Shown one piece after another: positions 23,974 through 64,000 of a stretch of 64,000 bases of DNA. Position 1 is the first letter of the stretch, and each line of letters starts with the position of its first letter. The stretch comes from an uncultured bacterium. GTDB taxonomy: Bacteria; Hydrothermota; UBA3072. The notes under the pieces are model-generated. The model was not told the DNA's origin and made no database searches. It saw only the letters and a list, made by a program, of their open reading frames with translations. The stretch is from the NCBI GenBank assembly GCA_964418485.1, contig CAYQMH010000001.1, forward strand, positions 29,237 to 93,236, read 5' to 3'. The translations under genes were made by a program, and so were the position numbers.

Positions 23974-24039
23974 TTTTCCAAACTTACCATACTAAAGTGA
24001 TTGCCTATGTCAAGACGGCAACCCACCCCACACCAAATA

Positions 24040-24260
24040 TTAACCACAGAGGACACAGAGAAAAACAAACCCTCAGAGACCACAGAGAAAAACAACAAAT
24101 TATTTTTTTAATTAAAAACCCCAACCCCTCCAAAAAATAGAAACAACGAATTACACGAATAGCACGAATATCGAAAAGAAAAAAACTGATTTATTTGTGC
24201 AATTTGTTGTTAAAAAACGGGTGGTGCGGGTTCTTTATTTTTCCTATTCGACAATTTAAC
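24040..24260. repeat. Copy of dispersed composite intergenic repeat (CACAGAG heptads, C-rich complement of G tract, TTCGTG heptads)
   Basis: ccacagaggacacagagaaaaacaa...aaaccccaacccctcc...acgaattacacgaatagcacgaa is closely similar to 33228-33330. Its reverse complement is similar to 34490-34570. Confidence 0.65.
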
Positions 24261-28017: not shown

Positions 28018-28440
28018 GGATAACACTTTCGAAAAACCACAGTCAGTTTCCCCTGCGGTTTATTTCACAAGGAGTGCTGTTCGAGAAAGACGTGGTCAAT
28101 TTCCCCTGCGGTTTTATTCGCAAGGAGTACTGTTCGAGAAAACCAGAGTCAATTCTCCCAGCGAGAGAATTGCTCTTTACCTCTCGCTCTCACTCTTTTC
28201 GATTTTTGTAAAATCGAAAAACCGTGCCCGTTCGAGCTCCGAGATATTTTCCTGAACAGTACCCCTTACTCATTGGGCTGTTTTTGTCAAAAGTCCATGC
28301 CCGCTCGGTCTGCGAGACATTTTTTATGAAAGGCATCCCTGAACTTTTAATATTTTAAGAAAATAAAAAGGATAGTGTGCCCGCTCGGTCTGCGAGATAT
28401 TTTTCTTGAGCGGTATCCCTCACTCTTGGGTTTTAAACAA
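28018..28440. repeat. Tandem array: 3 copies of ~53-bp unit A then 3 copies of ~70-bp unit B
   Basis: Unit A is ctgttcgagaaa(g/a)ac..gtcaattt(c)ccc(tgcgg) x3 at about 28018-28180. Unit B is (c)gtgcccg(c/t)tcg...cgaga(t/c)attt...tccct x3 at about 28223-28440. Units are 70-85% identical, not CRISPR-like. Confidence 0.7.
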
Positions 28441-28530
28441 CAAAAAAATCTCTGTGCTCTCTGTGTGTTTGTTTTTTCTCTGTGTGCTCTGTGGTTTAAA
28501 AAATCGAGGTTGGGGTTGCCCTCTTGACAA
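28440..28530. repeat. Copy of composite repeat (CTCTGTG heptads + GGTTGGGGTTGCCCTCTTGACA end)
   Basis: aaatctctgtgctctctgtgtg...ctctgtgtgctctgtgg...gaggttggggttgccctcTTGACAaag, with the -35-like box at the 3' end. Confidence 0.6.
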
Positions 28531-28586
28531 AGTTGGTTTTAGTGTTACCTTTTATTAAAAAGTAACACTTGTTAAAGGGGGTATTA

Positions 28587-33224: not shown

Positions 33225-33465
33225 CACGAAGACACTAAGACACGAAGAAAAAACAACAAAATTAGTATTGTTGATTAAACCCCTCAACCCCACCAAAGAA
33301 TAGAAACAACGAATCACACGAATAGCGCAAATTTCTTTTAATTTAACTCGAAACACGAAACCCAAAACTCGAAACTTTATAATTTCACACAAAGTCACAA
33401 AGGACACAAAGTTTTTATTTATTTTTTTTGACTAGTGACCAGTGACTGGTGACTGATGACTACTT
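33225..33465. repeat. Copy of composite repeat (CACGAAG/CACAAAG heptads + C-rich tract) plus GTGACCAGTGACTGGTGAC motif
   Basis: gccacgaagacactaagacacgaag...aacccctcaaccccacc...cacacgaatagcgcaaat...cacaaagtcacaaaggacacaaag...gactagtgaccagtgactggtgactgatgact. Confidence 0.6.
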
Positions 33466-34299: not shown

Positions 34300-34640
34300 A
34301 ATGAATTCATTCTCTTAAGTCAATGGTATTTTTGGCTACGAATAGCCACGAAGGCACTAAGATACAAAGAAAGAAACAACAAGAAAATATTATTTTTTAT
34401 AATTTCCACACCCATCCCAAAAGAGAGTAACAACAAATAGCACAAATTACACAAATGTATTGATAATGAGCATTTTTTATATAAGAATGAATCTTTTTCG
34501 TTTTATTCGTGCTATTCGTGTAATTCGTTGTTTCTATTTTGGGGAAGGGTTGAGGGTTTTAATCGGAAATATAAATTTTGTTGTTTTTCTTTGCGTTCTT
34601 TGTGGGCTTTGTGGTTCAATGATTTTTTTATATTGCTTGA
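34300..34640. repeat. Two adjacent copies of composite repeat
   Basis: The first copy is 34325-34440 (cacgaaggcactaagatacaaag...cccatcccaaaag...). The second is 34490-34625 (ttcgtgctattcgtgtaattcgttg...ggggaagggttgagggttttaa...ctttgtgggctttgtgg). Confidence 0.65.
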
Positions 34641-48357: not shown

Positions 48358-50256
48358 ATGCTTTTATTTGTGCTTTCGTTTGCTTATTTATGGATATATG
48401 AAGGAGATTCTCTTTTTAATGGTCTTTCGGAAGGAACTGTGATCACGAGAGATTCGGTTTTTGTGGGGAATGAGATAGAGGAATTTTCGTGGGAAAGCAG
48501 CGGTTTTGTTTCCGATATAGTCAGGGTAGGTGATGATATATATTTTAGCGTATCCGATGCTGGCATAATTGTAAGAATGCGAGATGACGGAAAAACAGAT
48601 ACAGTTTTGACTCGTGAAGGAAATTTGGTTTCTCTGGGAAAAAAGGGGAACGTTCTTCTGGCAGGGTTATCTCCCGCAGGGAAACTTTTTTTCATAAAAG
48701 ATTCAAAAATTGTGGACTCTTTGGATGCTCCTTCAGATAATGTTTACTGTATGTTCGAATTCGCAGGGCTTTTCTTAATCGGTACCGGTCCCGAAGGCAA
48801 AGTTTATAAGCTTGCCGGAGACAAAGAGTTTGAAGAATATTTTAAAACACAAGCGGCTTCTGTTACCAGATGGCTGGTGAAGGATAAGAACCTCTTTTTG
48901 GGAACAAGTAATCCCGGACTTATATACAGGATAGATAAAAATAATGAGGGGAAAATTTATTATGATCCCGGGTTCGAGGAGGTAAACGGCCTCGGTTACT
49001 GTGGAGATACTTTATGCATTTCCGGATTGTTGCCCGGGCAGGGTGAGTCCGTAGGGGGTATTAAGTTTTATCTGAAGAATAGAGAATATGAAGTTTATAT
49101 GGGTACTCCTATATTATGTGGAGAGGTGGCTAATCTGAAGTTTTATGCCGGAGAATCTGAAGATGGTCAGTTAGGAGAGTTTCACCGCAGTGGTTTTAAT
49201 ATAGTTGCCGATCTGGACGAACCAAAAGTGACTGCACTTCAAGAGATTGATAATGATATTTGGATTGGTTCCGGTTATCCTGCCAAGGTTTATAAATTAA
49301 CCGGGAAAAGATTGAAAGAAGGAGAATATATTTCTTCTGTATTTAAGGGAGGCGTTTCTGTTATATGGGGGAATCTCGACTACGAAGGTAAGGGAGATAT
49401 AGATTTTTTTATAAGAGGAGGAAAGAAAGAAGAAGTGGATTCTTCATGGAGTAAATGGGAAAGCATCGATAAGCATATAGAATTGGAAGAGCCTTTCATA
49501 CAGTGGAAAGCAGTTTTAAAACAAGATAAAGCTTATCTGAAAGGGGTTCGTGTTTCCTATGGAAAACAAAATTCTCCTCCGAGTATACGGGAGATTAAGG
49601 TTTTGCCCCCAAAGATAGGTGCTGGTAAGATGGATGAAGGTTCTACTATTATGGGTCCTATTCCACCGGAGGATAAGGAGCGACTTAGAAGTATGGGATT
49701 CTATATTCCGGAAGATGCCTATGTTATTGGAGAAGGTCTTCGCTGTATATACTGGCAGGCAGATGATCCCGATAATGATCAACTGGTCTTCGATGTTTAT
49801 GTTTCTCGAGATTCGAAAAGTTGGGATGAAATGGAACTTGGTTTATCCGGAAACAGCTATTTTATTAATACTTCTGCCTATCCTGACGGTTATTATTATA
49901 TTAAGTTGATTGCGAGGGACGACCTGGATCAGCCAAATTCTCTTAAGACGGAAAAGAAAGTTTCTTTTTTGGTCGATCATACCCCTCCGACTTTTAAGGA
50001 AATAGAAAAAAAATCCATTCGAGACAGCGTTCTTGTGAGTGGGACTGTAACGGATGAACTTTCATCTATTATCAGTGTTATGTATAGTACTGCGGAGACG
50101 CAGAAAACGCTTTGGAAGAGAGCACGGGCGGAAGATGAACTATTTGATGAGAAAGAAGAAAAGTTTTCCTTTAAGGTTGATAAAAAAGAAAAGTACGGTG
50201 CTATAAGAGTCGTTGATAGAAATGATAATAGCAGAGTTGTAAGAATCGAATTTTAG
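48358..50256 (+). CDS. Hypothetical large exported protein (beta-propeller-like repeats + C-terminal beta-sandwich region)
   Basis: The start at 48358 follows the RBS aggagataaa and is translationally coupled to the upstream gene. It has a hydrophobic N-terminus. No catalytic motifs were found. Confidence 0.5.
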   Translation: MLLFVLSFAYLWIYEGDSLFNGLSEGTVITRDSVFVGNEIEEFSWESSGFVSDIVRVGDDIYFSVSDAGIIVRMRDDGKTDTVLTREGNLVSLGKKGNVLLAGLSPAGKLFFIKDSKIVDSLDAPSDNVYCMFEFAGLFLIGTGPEGKVYKLAGDKEFEEYFKTQAASVTRWLVKDKNLFLGTSNPGLIYRIDKNNEGKIYYDPGFEEVNGLGYCGDTLCISGLLPGQGESVGGIKFYLKNREYEVYMGTPILCGEVANLKFYAGESEDGQLGEFHRSGFNIVADLDEPKVTALQEIDNDIWIGSGYPAKVYKLTGKRLKEGEYISSVFKGGVSVIWGNLDYEGKGDIDFFIRGGKKEEVDSSWSKWESIDKHIELEEPFIQWKAVLKQDKAYLKGVRVSYGKQNSPPSIREIKVLPPKIGAGKMDEGSTIMGPIPPEDKERLRSMGFYIPEDAYVIGEGLRCIYWQADDPDNDQLVFDVYVSRDSKSWDEMELGLSGNSYFINTSAYPDGYYYIKLIARDDLDQPNSLKTEKKVSFLVDHTPPTFKEIEKKSIRDSVLVSGTVTDELSSIISVMYSTAETQKTLWKRARAEDELFDEKEEKFSFKVDKKEKYGAIRVVDRNDNSRVVRIEF

Positions 50257-50261
50257 AAAAA

Positions 50262-50586
50262 ATTAAAAAACATTAAACACAGAGGACACAAAGAAATAAT
50301 TGTGTTAAAAAAGAAAAAAACACTGAGACCACAGAGAAAAAAAGAAATAAAAAATCTATGTTCTCTGTGGTGAAATATTATGGTGGGGTGTTGTGTGAGC
50401 TCTGTGCTCTCTGTATTTTGATTTGGGTGAGGAGTGGTGGGTTAAACAAAATAAAACTCTGTGTTCTCTGTGGTAAAATATTATGGTGGGGGGTTGGGTG
50501 GGCTCTGTGCTCTCCGTGTTTTCGTCGGGGTGGTGTGTGTTTTGGAAAAACAAAACAAAAATCTCTGTGTGCTCTGTGGTAAAAAA
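50262..50586. repeat. Largest composite-repeat array: ~3 tandem ~90-bp units (CTCTGTG(T)TCTCTGTGGTAAAATATTATGGTGGGGGGTTGGGTGGG...)
   Basis: Units at about 50340-50420, 50420-50500 and 50500-50586 are 80-90% identical to each other and to 61795-61890. Confidence 0.7.
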
Positions 50587-50587
50587 T

Positions 50588-51145
50588 ATGGGGAAATTTC
50601 TTTTTAAATATAGATCCTTTTTTCCGGTTCCGTATTTTTTGTTTTTATTAATTGTTATAGAATTCAGATCCTTGAGTTTCTTTCTGGGTAGTTTTATAGT
50701 TCTTTTAGGCCTTCTAATACGTTTCTTTTCGCAAGGATTCGCGGGTGATTGGATGAGAGGAAGTGAAGTTGGGGCTTTCTATATGCTTGATGAGGGAGTC
50801 TATAGTATTATGCGCAATCCTTTATACGTGGGTAATTTTTTTATCGGGTTTGGTTTTACTTTAGCTTCTAATTTTTTTCTTATTTTTCTTTTTCCTTTTT
50901 ATTCGCTTATATTCTCAATATACTATTATTTGATTATCAAAGAGGAAGAAAGTTATCTTGAGAGGAAATTCGGAGAAGAGTTTATTCAGTATCGCAAAAG
51001 CACACCTGCTTTCCTTCCGAATTTTCGCAAATGGAAAACAGGGCAATTTTTGAGTAGAAATGCCCTGCGTATGGAGAGTAGTACTTACCTTACGGTTGGT
51101 TTTATTTTTGTTTTGTTTTTGATTAAAGTTTATATTTTTGATTGA
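50588..51145 (+). CDS. Isoprenylcysteine carboxyl methyltransferase (ICMT)/phospholipid methyltransferase-family membrane protein
   Basis: The 185-aa polytopic protein has the RNPLY motif and C-terminal EE..L...FG.EF..Y pattern of the ICMT/PEMT family. The ORF-track N-terminal extension (GTG at 50483) reads through the repeat. Confidence 0.6.
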   Translation: MGKFLFKYRSFFPVPYFLFLLIVIEFRSLSFFLGSFIVLLGLLIRFFSQGFAGDWMRGSEVGAFYMLDEGVYSIMRNPLYVGNFFIGFGFTLASNFFLIFLFPFYSLIFSIYYYLIIKEEESYLERKFGEEFIQYRKSTPAFLPNFRKWKTGQFLSRNALRMESSTYLTVGFIFVLFLIKVYIFD

Positions 51146-51179: not shown

Positions 51180-52601
51180 TCACTGAAGAATGATAGCTTT
51201 CTTCCTGTATATATTATCTCCTATCTCTACTCTGACAAAGTAAATGCCGTTCTTTCCATTCCACTGGAGATTATAGCTGCCGGAAGGTCTGACTTCATTC
51301 ATTATCTTTTCCATTCTCTGCCCAAGAATGTTAAATATTTCCACCTTTACTCTTTTTTCTTCCAGAAGAGAAAAATTAATATTAATTCCGGAATTTATGT
51401 TAATAAGGGAAACTCCTTCCTCTAAAATTTCATTTTCATCATCTTCTGAACTACCGGTATATTTGATGATATAAAGACCATCGTCCCTATCCGCAACGTA
51501 GGCGAGGCTGTCGACAACGTAGGCACCGGAGGCCTCACTCCCCGTATCATAATACCCAATCTCGACCGGGCTTGTCGGGTCACTCACGTCAATGATACGT
51601 AAACCATTGAAACCGGCTGCAACGTAGGCGAGGCTGTCGACAACATAAACACCTGAGGCTTCAATCTCTGTATCATAGATACCAATCCAAAACGGGCTTG
51701 TTGGGTCACTCACGTCTATGATATGTAGACCATTGGAAGAAGCTGCAACGTAGGCGAGACTGTCGACAACGTAAACACCCTTGGCCCAAATTCCCGGATC
51801 ATAGTACCCAATTTCAACCGGATTTGAAGGGTCACTCACGTTTATGATACGTAGACCATCTGAGTTATCCGCAACGTAGGCGAGGCTGTCGACAACGTAA
51901 ACATCTTGGGCCCAACTCTCCGTATCATAATACCCAATCTCAACGGGGCTTGTCGGGTCACTTACGTCTATGATACGCAGACCATCTAAACCGGCTGCAA
52001 CGTAGGCGAGGCTGTCGATAACGTAAACGTCGGAGGTGGTGCTTCCCGTATAATAGTGGCTAATCTCAATTGGGCTTGTAGGGTCACTTACGTCTATGAT
52101 ATAAAGACCATCCCGGAAATCAGCAACATAGGCGAGACTGTCGACAGCGTAAACACCGTAGGACCAATACCCAATATCATAGTAGCCAATCTCGACCGGA
52201 CTTGTCGGATTACTCACGTCAATGATACGTAGACCATCCCAGTAACTCGCAACATAGGCGAGGCTGTCGATGACGTAGATATCCATAACTTGAGATGGAC
52301 ATCTAATTTTACCAATAGTGGTGGGATTTGAAGGGTTAGTTACGTTAAGTATCCTCAGATAGCCTCCATCTCCTATGAACACAAGACTGTCAATTGTAAA
52401 TACAGCTTCAGATGGACCGCTGAACCATCCACCTACAAGAGTACAGTCCAATGAATCACCCCTGAAGTTTTCACGGGTCCAATTCTCATTCACAGGTCTT
52501 CTATCTAACTCAATCTTTCTGTGAGATGTTTGGGCAAATAAACTGACAGTCCCGAAAAATATTAATAATACAACAATTGTATTTTGAATTAAGCGTCTCA
52601 T
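51180..52601 (-). CDS. LVIVD-repeat beta-propeller protein with T9SS C-terminal sorting domain
   Basis: It has a signal peptide and about 9 tandem ~40-aa repeats (DSLAYVA...DGLRIIDVSDPTSPVEIGYYDT). The C-terminal tail is Por-secretion-like (...GIYFVRVEIGDNIYRKKAIILQ). Confidence 0.75.
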   Translation of the reverse strand: MRRLIQNTIVVLLIFFGTVSLFAQTSHRKIELDRRPVNENWTRENFRGDSLDCTLVGGWFSGPSEAVFTIDSLVFIGDGGYLRILNVTNPSNPTTIGKIRCPSQVMDIYVIDSLAYVASYWDGLRIIDVSNPTSPVEIGYYDIGYWSYGVYAVDSLAYVADFRDGLYIIDVSDPTSPIEISHYYTGSTTSDVYVIDSLAYVAAGLDGLRIIDVSDPTSPVEIGYYDTESWAQDVYVVDSLAYVADNSDGLRIINVSDPSNPVEIGYYDPGIWAKGVYVVDSLAYVAASSNGLHIIDVSDPTSPFWIGIYDTEIEASGVYVVDSLAYVAAGFNGLRIIDVSDPTSPVEIGYYDTGSEASGAYVVDSLAYVADRDDGLYIIKYTGSSEDDENEILEEGVSLININSGININFSLLEEKRVKVEIFNILGQRMEKIMNEVRPSGSYNLQWNGKNGIYFVRVEIGDNIYRKKAIILQ

Positions 52602-61734: not shown

Positions 61735-61930
61735 TATGGTTTCGGGTTTTGAGTTTCGTGTTTCGAGTTGAAAAATAAACAAAAAGGAGGGGTTGTGGGG
61801 TGTAGCTCTGTGCTCTCTGTATTTAAATTGGGGTAATGGGGTTGTGAGTAAACAAAATAAAAATCTCTGTGTCCTCTGTGGTTAATTGTTTTTGTTCTTT
61901 GTGCCTTTGTGTCTTTGTGGTTAAATACAC
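61735..61930. repeat. Copy of composite repeat, ~85% identical over ~85 bp to 50400-50485
   Basis: tagctctgtgctctctgtatttaaattggggtaatggggttgtgagtaaacaaaataaaaatctctgtgtcctctgtggttaa...ctttgtgcctttgtgtctttgtgg. Confidence 0.7.
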
Positions 61931-63764: not shown

Positions 63765-64000
63765 ATTACTAACCACAGAGACCACAGAGATTTTATTTTG
63801 TTAATACCTCCCGACTACCTCCCCGATTAAAACACGGAGAGCACAGAGTTTACACAACCCCACACTATAGTATTTTATCACAAAGAACACAGAGTTTTCA
63901 TTTCTTTTTTTTCTCTTTGTTTTATTAATTGAGTGCGGTGATTGGGTTTTAAACAACAAAATTTATTTTTTCTCTGTGGTCTCTGTGTGTTTGTTCTTTT
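63765..64000. repeat. Copy of composite repeat (reverse-orientation CACAGAG heptads, then forward GGTGATTGGGTTTTAAACAACAAAA...CTCTGTGGTCTCTGTG)
   Basis: aaccacagagaccacagagattttattttgtt...cacggagagcacagag...gagtgcggtgattgggttttaaacaacaaaatttattttttctctgtggtctctgtgtg. Confidence 0.65.

Follow-up and report, generated by a model that had tools for sequence, protein, structure and literature searches.

A tandem composite repeat upstream of an ICMT-family methyltransferase gene and the distribution of its short core module across bacterial phyla and viral contigs

Described repeat systems and the present locus

The REP, BIME and REPIN sequences of Proteobacteria are strictly extragenic and combine short palindrome-forming units with further conserved motifs, the orientation alternating, into mosaics which are amplified locally in tandem, often lie within operons or at gene ends, and differ in spacer content between strains. 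The REP palindrome ends in a conserved GTAG/CGTC tetranucleotide. MITEs and the Rickettsia palindromic elements are small (80-300 nt), possess inverted termini, insert at gene boundaries and are tolerated in frame. Replacement of whole intergenic regions between strains has been termed horizontal regulatory switching. Finally, heptamer repeats near start codons have been described, namely TAACTGA in Beggiatoaceae, Cyanobacteria and Bacteroidetes (PMC4679880) and the heptamer repeats of Nostoc, the cyanobacterial STRR (bioRxiv 10.1101/2022.06.06.494920). A regulatory role has been proposed for these heptamer repeats and is unproven (PMC4679880; bioRxiv 10.1101/2022.06.06.494920).

We analysed a repeat located directly upstream of an ICMT/PEMT-family methyltransferase gene (ICMT in the following) in a 64-kb stretch of bacterial DNA, the whole of which is called the window. 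The core module of the repeat is formed by pairs or triplets of CTCTGTG (or CTTTGTG) with two variable bases between them and a 9-nt period. It is also written (CACAGAGNN)n, and its 9-nt repeat unit, CACAGAG on one strand and CTCTGTG on the other, is written CTCTGTGNN. Like the REP/BIME/REPIN systems, the repeat is strictly extragenic: a relaxed two-heptamer pattern gave 25 matches in the window, and all 25 dimer modules fell in its non-coding part (~14%). It likewise forms mosaics of short units and other conserved motifs in alternating orientation, with inverted, hairpin-capable copies (a perfect 11-nt inverted repeat in the window, and outward-facing pairs in 50 of the 137 cross-phylum matches listed), shows local tandem amplification, often lies within operons or at gene ends, and differs in spacer content between strains. 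Unlike these systems, it bears no GTAG/CGTC tag, its arms ending in ACCACAGAG and CTCTGTGGT; the arms are heptamer arrays of 9-nt period and not a single 35-nt palindrome; no RAYT (Y1 transposase) was found among nine Pfam-scanned ORFs of the window; and whereas REP families are lineage-specific, the core module is common to more than 20 phyla and to viral contigs.

With the STRR and TAACTGA repeats the module shares an intergenic 7-nt motif present two to several times, often a few bases from a start codon, and a patchy distribution across unrelated phyla with no known spreading mechanism. It differs from them in that the heptamers are not contiguous head-to-tail but separated by two variable bases (one in a minority), that modules are equally frequent at gene 3' ends, that they usually form outward-facing inverted pairs, and that they form part of a larger composite unit that also contains G-rich boxes. 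The likeness to MITEs and Rickettsia palindromic elements covers the small size, the inverted termini, the insertion at gene boundaries and the tolerance in frame: one strand of the heptamer contains no A and the other no T, so that the heptamers hold neither a stop codon nor an ATG in any frame. In contrast to those elements, target-site duplications were not evident at the junctions examined, no autonomous parent element (a transposase-sized insert between arrays) was found in ~220 loci, and only the arms, not the internal sequence, are conserved between genomes. Among the loci examined, we found neither a pair of empty and filled sites with clean boundaries nor a transposase or other mechanism that would mobilise the cassette.

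The reading that we favour, and hold to be probable by a modest measure, is that the spacer is a REP/BIME- or STRR-like mosaic cassette in which a single unequal exchange produced the duplication. On this reading the cassette can be exchanged or dispensed with, its role would not go beyond that of a structured intercistronic spacer, and it would not be a gene-specific switch. At this locus the array would then be a duplicated piece of a dispensable cassette, neither a promoter stack nor a G4 switch for the methyltransferase gene. As a local feature such an array is ordinary; the swapping of spacer alleles and a cross-phylum, phage-borne core module are not.

Architecture of the spacer and the repeat family in the window

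The spacer between the ICMT gene and the gene upstream measures 331 nt (Table 1). Its tandem part comprises two complete composite units of 103 nt, A and B, and 43 nt of a third, the leading modules starting 103 and 106 nt apart. Units A and B are 78% identical and differ at ~22 positions, for which reason a misassembly of the array is unlikely. Tandem Repeats Finder, run on the window, did not report the 103-nt array because the copies are too diverged. When the copies are aligned, the unit reads, in order, A-rich spacer, CTCTGTG-NN-CTCTGTGG, TAAAATATTATGG, G-rich box, CTCTGTGCTCTCCGTG, TTTTGATTT with a second G-rich box, and A-rich spacer. Upstream of the tandem part lie two inverted half-modules on the minus strand; modules at opposite edges of the spacer are thus in inverted orientation and face outwards. 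Half-module 2 and the first forward module form the perfect 11-nt inverted repeat (50328-50338 and 50361-50371), which encloses a 22-nt A-rich loop.

The first-pass annotation had placed here a tandem array of about three ~90-bp units. The repeat is real, adjoins the start codon and is, as had been stated, the largest instance of its family, a model of the unit finding only single full copies elsewhere in the window; its left part (50262-50340), though, lies outside the tandem array, and the unit length and number are those given above. The 46-nt string quoted for each unit is intact in unit B only, unit A holding a diverged form (GGTGAAAT..GGGGTGTTGTGTG) and the partial third copy only the first module of it. 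The TAAAAT ascribed to each unit reads TGAAAT in unit A, and the internal ATGG, presented as a feature of the unit, reads ATAG both in the related contig L128 and in the dispersed copy at 63.9 kb. The codon at 50483, given as GTG, is ATG; the public gene call takes a GTG at 50498 as the ICMT start. The annotation correctly regarded the N-terminal extension of the ORF through the array as artificial: ICMT orthologues are mostly 184-186 aa long and start at ATGGGG.

Table 1. Coordinates of the composite repeat, its neighbours and other features described in the text (positions in the window unless a contig is named)
Feature	Position	Strand	Description
Upstream gene	48358-50256	+	632-aa protein; variable spacer bounded on the left by its stop codon
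Inverted half-module 1	50277-50293	-	Top strand CACAGAGGACACAAAG; GGT-type end directed at the upstream gene
Inverted half-module 2	50320-50336	-	Top strand CACTGAGACCACAGAG
Composite unit A	50341-50443	+	From repeat finding, alignment with other copies and unit model; A-rich spacer, module 50354-50370, TGAAATATT, G-rich box 50380-50397, module 50400-50416, G-rich box 50425-50441
Composite unit B (extra copy)	50444-50546	+	From repeat finding, alignment and unit model; module 50457-50473, TAAAATATT, ATG 50483, G-rich box 50485-50502, module 50503-50519, G-rich box 50527-50539
Partial third unit	50545-50587	+	A-rich spacer, module 50563-50579 and TAAAAAAT; stops directly before the ICMT ATG
ICMT/PEMT-family methyltransferase gene	50588-51145	+	ATGGGG start, 185 aa
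Dispersed, more diverged copy of the composite unit	61759-61860	+	Followed by further CTCTGTG/CTTTGTG modules
Dispersed full copy of the composite unit	63793-63899	-	Directed at the 3' end of the GH28 gene; internal ATG replaced (ATAG)
Partial unit 3' of ICMT, L133	3544-3620	-
Partial unit 3' of ICMT, L130	3660-3708	-
Partial unit 3' of ICMT, L240	2061-2130	-
Partial unit 3' of ICMT, L126	4560-4630	-
Further short-period families	24146-24170, 33225-33248, 33345-33376, 33387-33412, 33429-33462, 34504-34528, 61739-61769
53-nt duplication and ~43-nt motif copies	28042-28147, 28225-28420		In the 619-nt spacer upstream of the gene at 28569
GGGGT(G)GGTTGCC context, site 1	~23990-24015	-	Directly downstream of CTCTGTG modules
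GGGGT(G)GGTTGCC context, site 2	~28515-28535	+	Directly downstream of CTCTGTG modules
126-nt tandem repeat	51493-52277		6.2 copies, coding, within the minus-strand gene 51180-52601

On the favoured reading, the cassette would be built from three kinds of module: CTCTGTG/CTTTGTG pairs or triplets, G-rich boxes and A-rich spacers. In the one-unit alleles of related lineages a copy of the module CTCTGTGNNCTCTGTGGTAAAAT stands at either end of the unit, and unequal exchange or replication slippage between such direct modules could have generated two units and a partial third. The low identity of the copies indicates that this event would be old. At the right junction, the ATGG(T)GGGG of the unit and the ATGGGG of the gene share a short similarity.

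To locate other copies, the window was searched with a sequence-only model of the 103-nt unit. Full copies were detected only in the array (50349-50454 and 50455-50557) and at the two dispersed sites of Table 1; a TTGAAA-N16-TAAATT promoter-like site follows the plus-strand copy, upstream of the GH28 gene. The shorter motif CTCTGTGNTCTCTGTGG, allowing up to 3 mismatches, occurs at 23 sites in the window, all intergenic, against 0.15 expected, and 9 of the 20 window spacers of at least 150 nt contain a relaxed dimer module. Nearly half of the longer spacers in this part of a candidate-phylum (WOR-3) genome are thus filled from a limited repertoire of short modules. The GGT end of the CTCTGTG strand is usually directed outwards to the nearest flanking gene, at 5' and 3' ends alike, and module polarity tracks the edges of the spacer, not the direction of transcription. 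Four of the window spacers hold canonical TTGACA-type promoters downstream of their modules.

The spacers that carry the family also contain the short-period modules TTCGTGCTATTCGTG, CACGAAGACACTAAG, TGACTAGTGACCAGTGAC, GTTTCGAGTTTCGTG and GGGGTTGGGG. Further short-period families found in them are ATTCGTG (9 nt), CACGAAGA (8 nt), AACTCGA/GTTTCGA (7 nt) and TGACTAG/TGACCAG (7 nt), the last of which resembles the cyanobacterial STRR heptamers. A 619-nt spacer holds a 53-nt tandem duplication and three copies, 73-80 nt apart, of a ~43-nt motif (TGCCCGCTCGGTCTGCGAGATATTTTT...), both unrelated to the CTCTGTG family. Two promoter-like sites share the context GGGGT(G)GGTTGCC(G/C)TCTTGACA, which suggests a conserved element around the -35 region. 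A Pfam scan of nine window ORFs assigned T9SS sorting domains, LVIVD repeats and an H+-pyrophosphatase to neighbouring genes and gave no match for the 632-aa protein upstream of ICMT; the 126-nt tandem repeat downstream corresponds to the LVIVD repeats in a protein of 473 aa that carries a C-terminal T9SS sorting domain.

The first-pass annotation had further suggested that the units are stacked promoter-like modules or else a slippage-prone and G4-prone switch region. Searching for sigma-70 -35/-10 hexamer pairs 16-18 nt apart, we found none in the array or in the one-unit orthologue of L133; a terminator search of both was equally negative, and the cassette supplies no canonical Shine-Dalgarno. 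With neither promoter nor terminator nor Shine-Dalgarno in the cassette, ICMT is probably transcribed here by read-through from the upstream gene. Inspection by eye did reveal an extended -10 string of the type TRTGnTAAAAT in unit B (TGTGGTAAAAT), in the terminal copy (TGTGGTAAAAAAT) and in several orthologues, L133 and L130 among them, and this motif might conceivably have some promoter activity. On this ground, and since the array allele has no other recognisable promoter, the units could be taken as stacked extended -10 promoters (TGnTAAAAT) that provide several ICMT starts and tune expression by unit number. We consider this quite improbable, as the -35 partner is missing and the motif is degraded in unit A (TGAAAT) and in L128 (TAnTAAAAT). 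The -10-like hexamer of the terminal copy ends 2-3 nt before the ICMT ATG, so that transcription from it would start inside ICMT. Modules moreover occur in both orientations and beside gene 3' ends: the copy of the unit at 63793-63899 runs antisense to the 3' end of another gene, the one upstream of ICMT in L126 is reversed, and the canonical promoters of other spacers are found downstream of the modules.

As for the G4 proposal, the canonical quadruplex motif (four G-runs of at least 3, loops of 1-7 nt) is absent from 50257-50587. The G4Hunter score exceeds 1.5 only in the first G-rich box of unit B (1.84), and this high score is not conserved, the G-rich boxes of unit A and of the orthologues being different. 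A contingency switch toggling ICMT expression through slippage or a G-quadruplex would be in keeping with that one score, with the variation of unit number among lineages and with the 9-nt sub-repeat, which looks slippage-like in phage contigs (2 to 8 copies) and is the part of the slippage proposal that stands. We nevertheless regard such a switch as very improbable. The 103-nt units are too dissimilar (78%), the sole contig of the same strain (L121) is identical to the window and variation is seen only between lineages, all unlike a simple-sequence contingency locus; steps of 9 nt keep the reading frame and therefore cannot turn an ORF on or off.

The spacer folds far better than shuffled sequence on both strands (z = -6.2 and -7.8), and short ORFs begin at its internal ATGs. 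We nonetheless find it hardly credible that the region specifies a structured non-coding RNA or a cis-regulatory leader, or that it codes for a small peptide. The strong folding is a trivial outcome of the inverted modules. The covariance models of Rfam 15 gave no match at gathering score, either for the window or for 18 loci of other phyla, and only chance-level matches when the spacer was scanned at E up to 10. For nine copies of the unit the consensus fold reached only -2 kcal/mol with no covariation, and a hairpin alignment of 5 sequences contained no informative covariation either. In two copies (L128 and the one at 63.9 kb) ATA stands in place of the internal ATG, and peptide frames differ between copies. 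Under the cassette reading that we prefer, the inverted modules could still form transcript hairpins that modulate stability or downstream translation, by analogy with REP sequences within operons.

Several known sites were also compared with the heptamer and set aside: DnaA boxes mismatch at position 4, the GTTRRRY of integron attC fits some copies only, and the RNA polymerase pause consensus has the wrong period. An intrinsic terminator was rejected, the hairpin being followed by an A-run and not a U-run. NusB/E boxA, LexA/CRP half-sites, Chi and Tn7-like ends were likewise considered and dropped.

Orthologous spacers in related lineages and near-identical strains

Relatives keep the genes in the order L27 - S55-like peptidase - 632-aa protein - ICMT, and an ICMT 82% identical to that of the window carries the NCBI name candidate division WOR-3. 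Contig L121 is identical to the window, with the same two units and partial third. The same architecture with one unit and a terminal partial copy is found in L133/134, L130/131, L128/129 and L262, and half a unit in L132. L122-125, L126/127, L248/249, L257, L263 and others have no forward array and carry other or reversed modules. In L245/246/255/259/260, the TAA is followed by 15 nt containing GGAG (a Shine-Dalgarno-coupled junction) with no repeat. Unit number is thus 0, 0.5, 1 or 2, two being confined to the window lineage, and the variation that the first-pass annotation had anticipated does exist among related genomes. It is seen only between lineages whose ICMT proteins are 65-84% identical.

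Compared with the orthologous single unit of L133, unit A is 87% and unit B 81% identical. Units A and B diverge from each other as much as orthologues do, from which it follows that the duplication is old or that the second copy was imported from another locus. One array allele is common to lineages with an ICMT only 65-84% identical to that of the window, and the spacers of the array-bearing lineages are 84-92% identical, against 55-72% at the four-fold degenerate sites of the flanking genes. This high conservation could reflect purifying selection on a function, a recent spread of the allele by horizontal transfer or homogenisation between copies, all of which fit equally well. In at least five lineages the last module adjoins the ICMT start codon, where it could have a role in translation initiation.

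In the lineages with the coupled junction (L245, L246, L255, L259 and L260), the codon aligned to ICMT Met1 is ATA, with CTG one codon upstream. These alignments suggest that a non-canonical start codon has been conserved across several lineages. A partial composite unit directed at ICMT lies, in several relatives, on the minus strand just downstream of the ICMT stop (Table 1), and ICMT is therefore placed between inward-pointing copies there.

Closely related strains differ in the whole spacer. From the ICMT start on, L128/L129 and L122-125 share 99.92% identity over 3,560 nt, and in the final 137 nt of the upstream gene the identity is 98.5%; between these flanks the spacers of L128 and L122, 224 and 284 nt long, are non-homologous. 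By these alignments, the two groups represent a whole-spacer replacement polymorphism within one population. The non-array allele of L122 contains a TTGACT-18-GATAAT site. The near-identical flanks around non-homologous spacers recall horizontal regulatory switching, as does the presence of a sigma-70-like promoter in one allele (L122) and not in the other (L128). The present case differs in that the alleles are patchworks of a dispersed repeat vocabulary and that one of them is shared by the divergent lineages described above.

ICMT is found with three kinds of upstream context, from which the dispensability of the cassette follows, and the presence of ICMT without any upstream repeat in some lineages implies that the array is not needed for its expression. 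Judged from sequence, the comparison shows the cassette to be a dispensable, exchangeable spacer allele. It would separate ICMT from the upstream gene, the two appearing tightly coupled in some relatives. Exchange of the spacer between near-identical strains changes the context of ICMT, which may have a promoter of its own, be coupled tightly to the preceding gene or have a structured spacer in front of it.

The core module across phyla and viral contigs

Outside the lineage the core motif typically consists of two or three copies at the 9-nt period. We scanned one genome per species for exact matches to CTCTGTGNNCTCTGTGGTWAAWW and recovered at least 120 loci (L001-L120) in more than 20 phyla, while our own calculation gives ~2 expected by chance. 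The carriers among the matches listed belong to Planctomycetota, Chlamydiota, Verrucomicrobiota, Acidobacteriota, Bacteroidota, Chloroflexota, Nitrospirota, Cyanobacteria, Proteobacteria and others, and include the cultured Pedobacter, Amphritea, Alcanivorax and Microcoleus. In the 50 of the 137 listed cross-phylum matches with an outward-facing inverted partner, this copy lies a median 43 nt upstream; at two-strand loci outward pairs are mostly 80-255 nt apart. The arms of the 137 matches are directed at gene starts in 44 cases and at the stops of convergent genes in 48, and in seven cases among the matches listed a TAA stop overlaps GGTTAA. In the examples read, the heptamers are conserved, the two spacer bases vary, and the spacer bases are not complementary between the arms.

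Viral contigs were scanned in the same manner, with altered heptamers and spacings for comparison. CTCTGTG at N2 spacing (period 9) gave 103 stretches (L135-L237), as against 0 for each of two permuted heptamers, 7 for the CTTTGTG variant, 14 for CTCTGTG at N1 spacing (period 8) and 0 at N3 spacing (period 10). The core module thus combines a strict specificity of sequence and spacing with an occurrence in many phyla and in viral contigs.

Copy number varies at a small phage gene (MEWRDASVT...) found on the viral contigs L186, L290, L291, L286, L287, L292 and L296, upstream of which ATGAAAATAACC is followed by 2, 3, 6 or 8 in-frame 9-nt units ACAGAGGAC. This array reads as a variable-number repeat at the 5' end of the gene, which would give (T-E-D)n if translated and tandem GAGG Shine-Dalgarno-like sites if not.

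Two explanations of this distribution were weighed. The first, which we advance tentatively as a possibility of less than even standing, is that (CACAGAG-NN)n/(CTCTGTG-NN)n is an undescribed ultra-short element that spans phyla, is carried by phages, has heptamers free of stop codons in all six frames and a period that keeps the reading frame, occurs as outward pairs at gene boundaries, expands and contracts in 9-nt steps and seeds the mosaic cassettes that are swapped between strains. As an ultra-short element, the array would, on account of its specificity of sequence and spacing, have to be recognised by a conserved protein or copied by a novel mechanism.

The second is that the heptamer arrays are binding sites of a conserved DNA- or RNA-binding factor and that the cassette belongs to a genome-wide regulatory or architectural network, for instance in translation initiation, mRNA processing or nucleoid organisation, the duplication merely adding sites upstream of ICMT. 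We hold this, roles included, to be rather unlikely, although a good part of the evidence is compatible with it: the specificity in viral contigs (103 stretches with N2 against 0, 0, 14 and 0 for the permuted heptamers, N1 and N3), the presence in more than 20 phyla, the conservation of heptamers next to variable, non-complementary spacer bases in the examples read, a spacer upstream of ICMT more conserved than synonymous sites, and the frequent position beside start and stop codons. Similar roles have also been proposed for the heptamer repeats near start codons (PMC4679880; bioRxiv 10.1101/2022.06.06.494920). Against a binding factor stand the lack of orientation bias of the arrays relative to transcription and the finding that the ICMT spacer may be array-free or swapped in near-identical strains; nor do the data name a candidate. 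Cold-shock proteins, S1 and MraZ might conceivably bind such heptamer arrays. If a common binding factor or copying mechanism does underlie the distribution, the core module would represent a new class of very small genetic element.

A BLAST search of the motif against plasmids, phages and E. coli returned few unannotated matches or none, a result in which the low-complexity filter may hide matches. A search of the literature available to us with the motif strings returned only unrelated primers and no description of the core module, to which the heptamer repeats of PMC4679880 and bioRxiv 10.1101/2022.06.06.494920 come closest. One published primer, which covers the start of B. fragilis BF2782 (PMC3090145), contains AACTCTGTGTTCTCTGTGGTG; the core module is therefore located beside a start codon in a cultured Bacteroides, where it has apparently passed unremarked.
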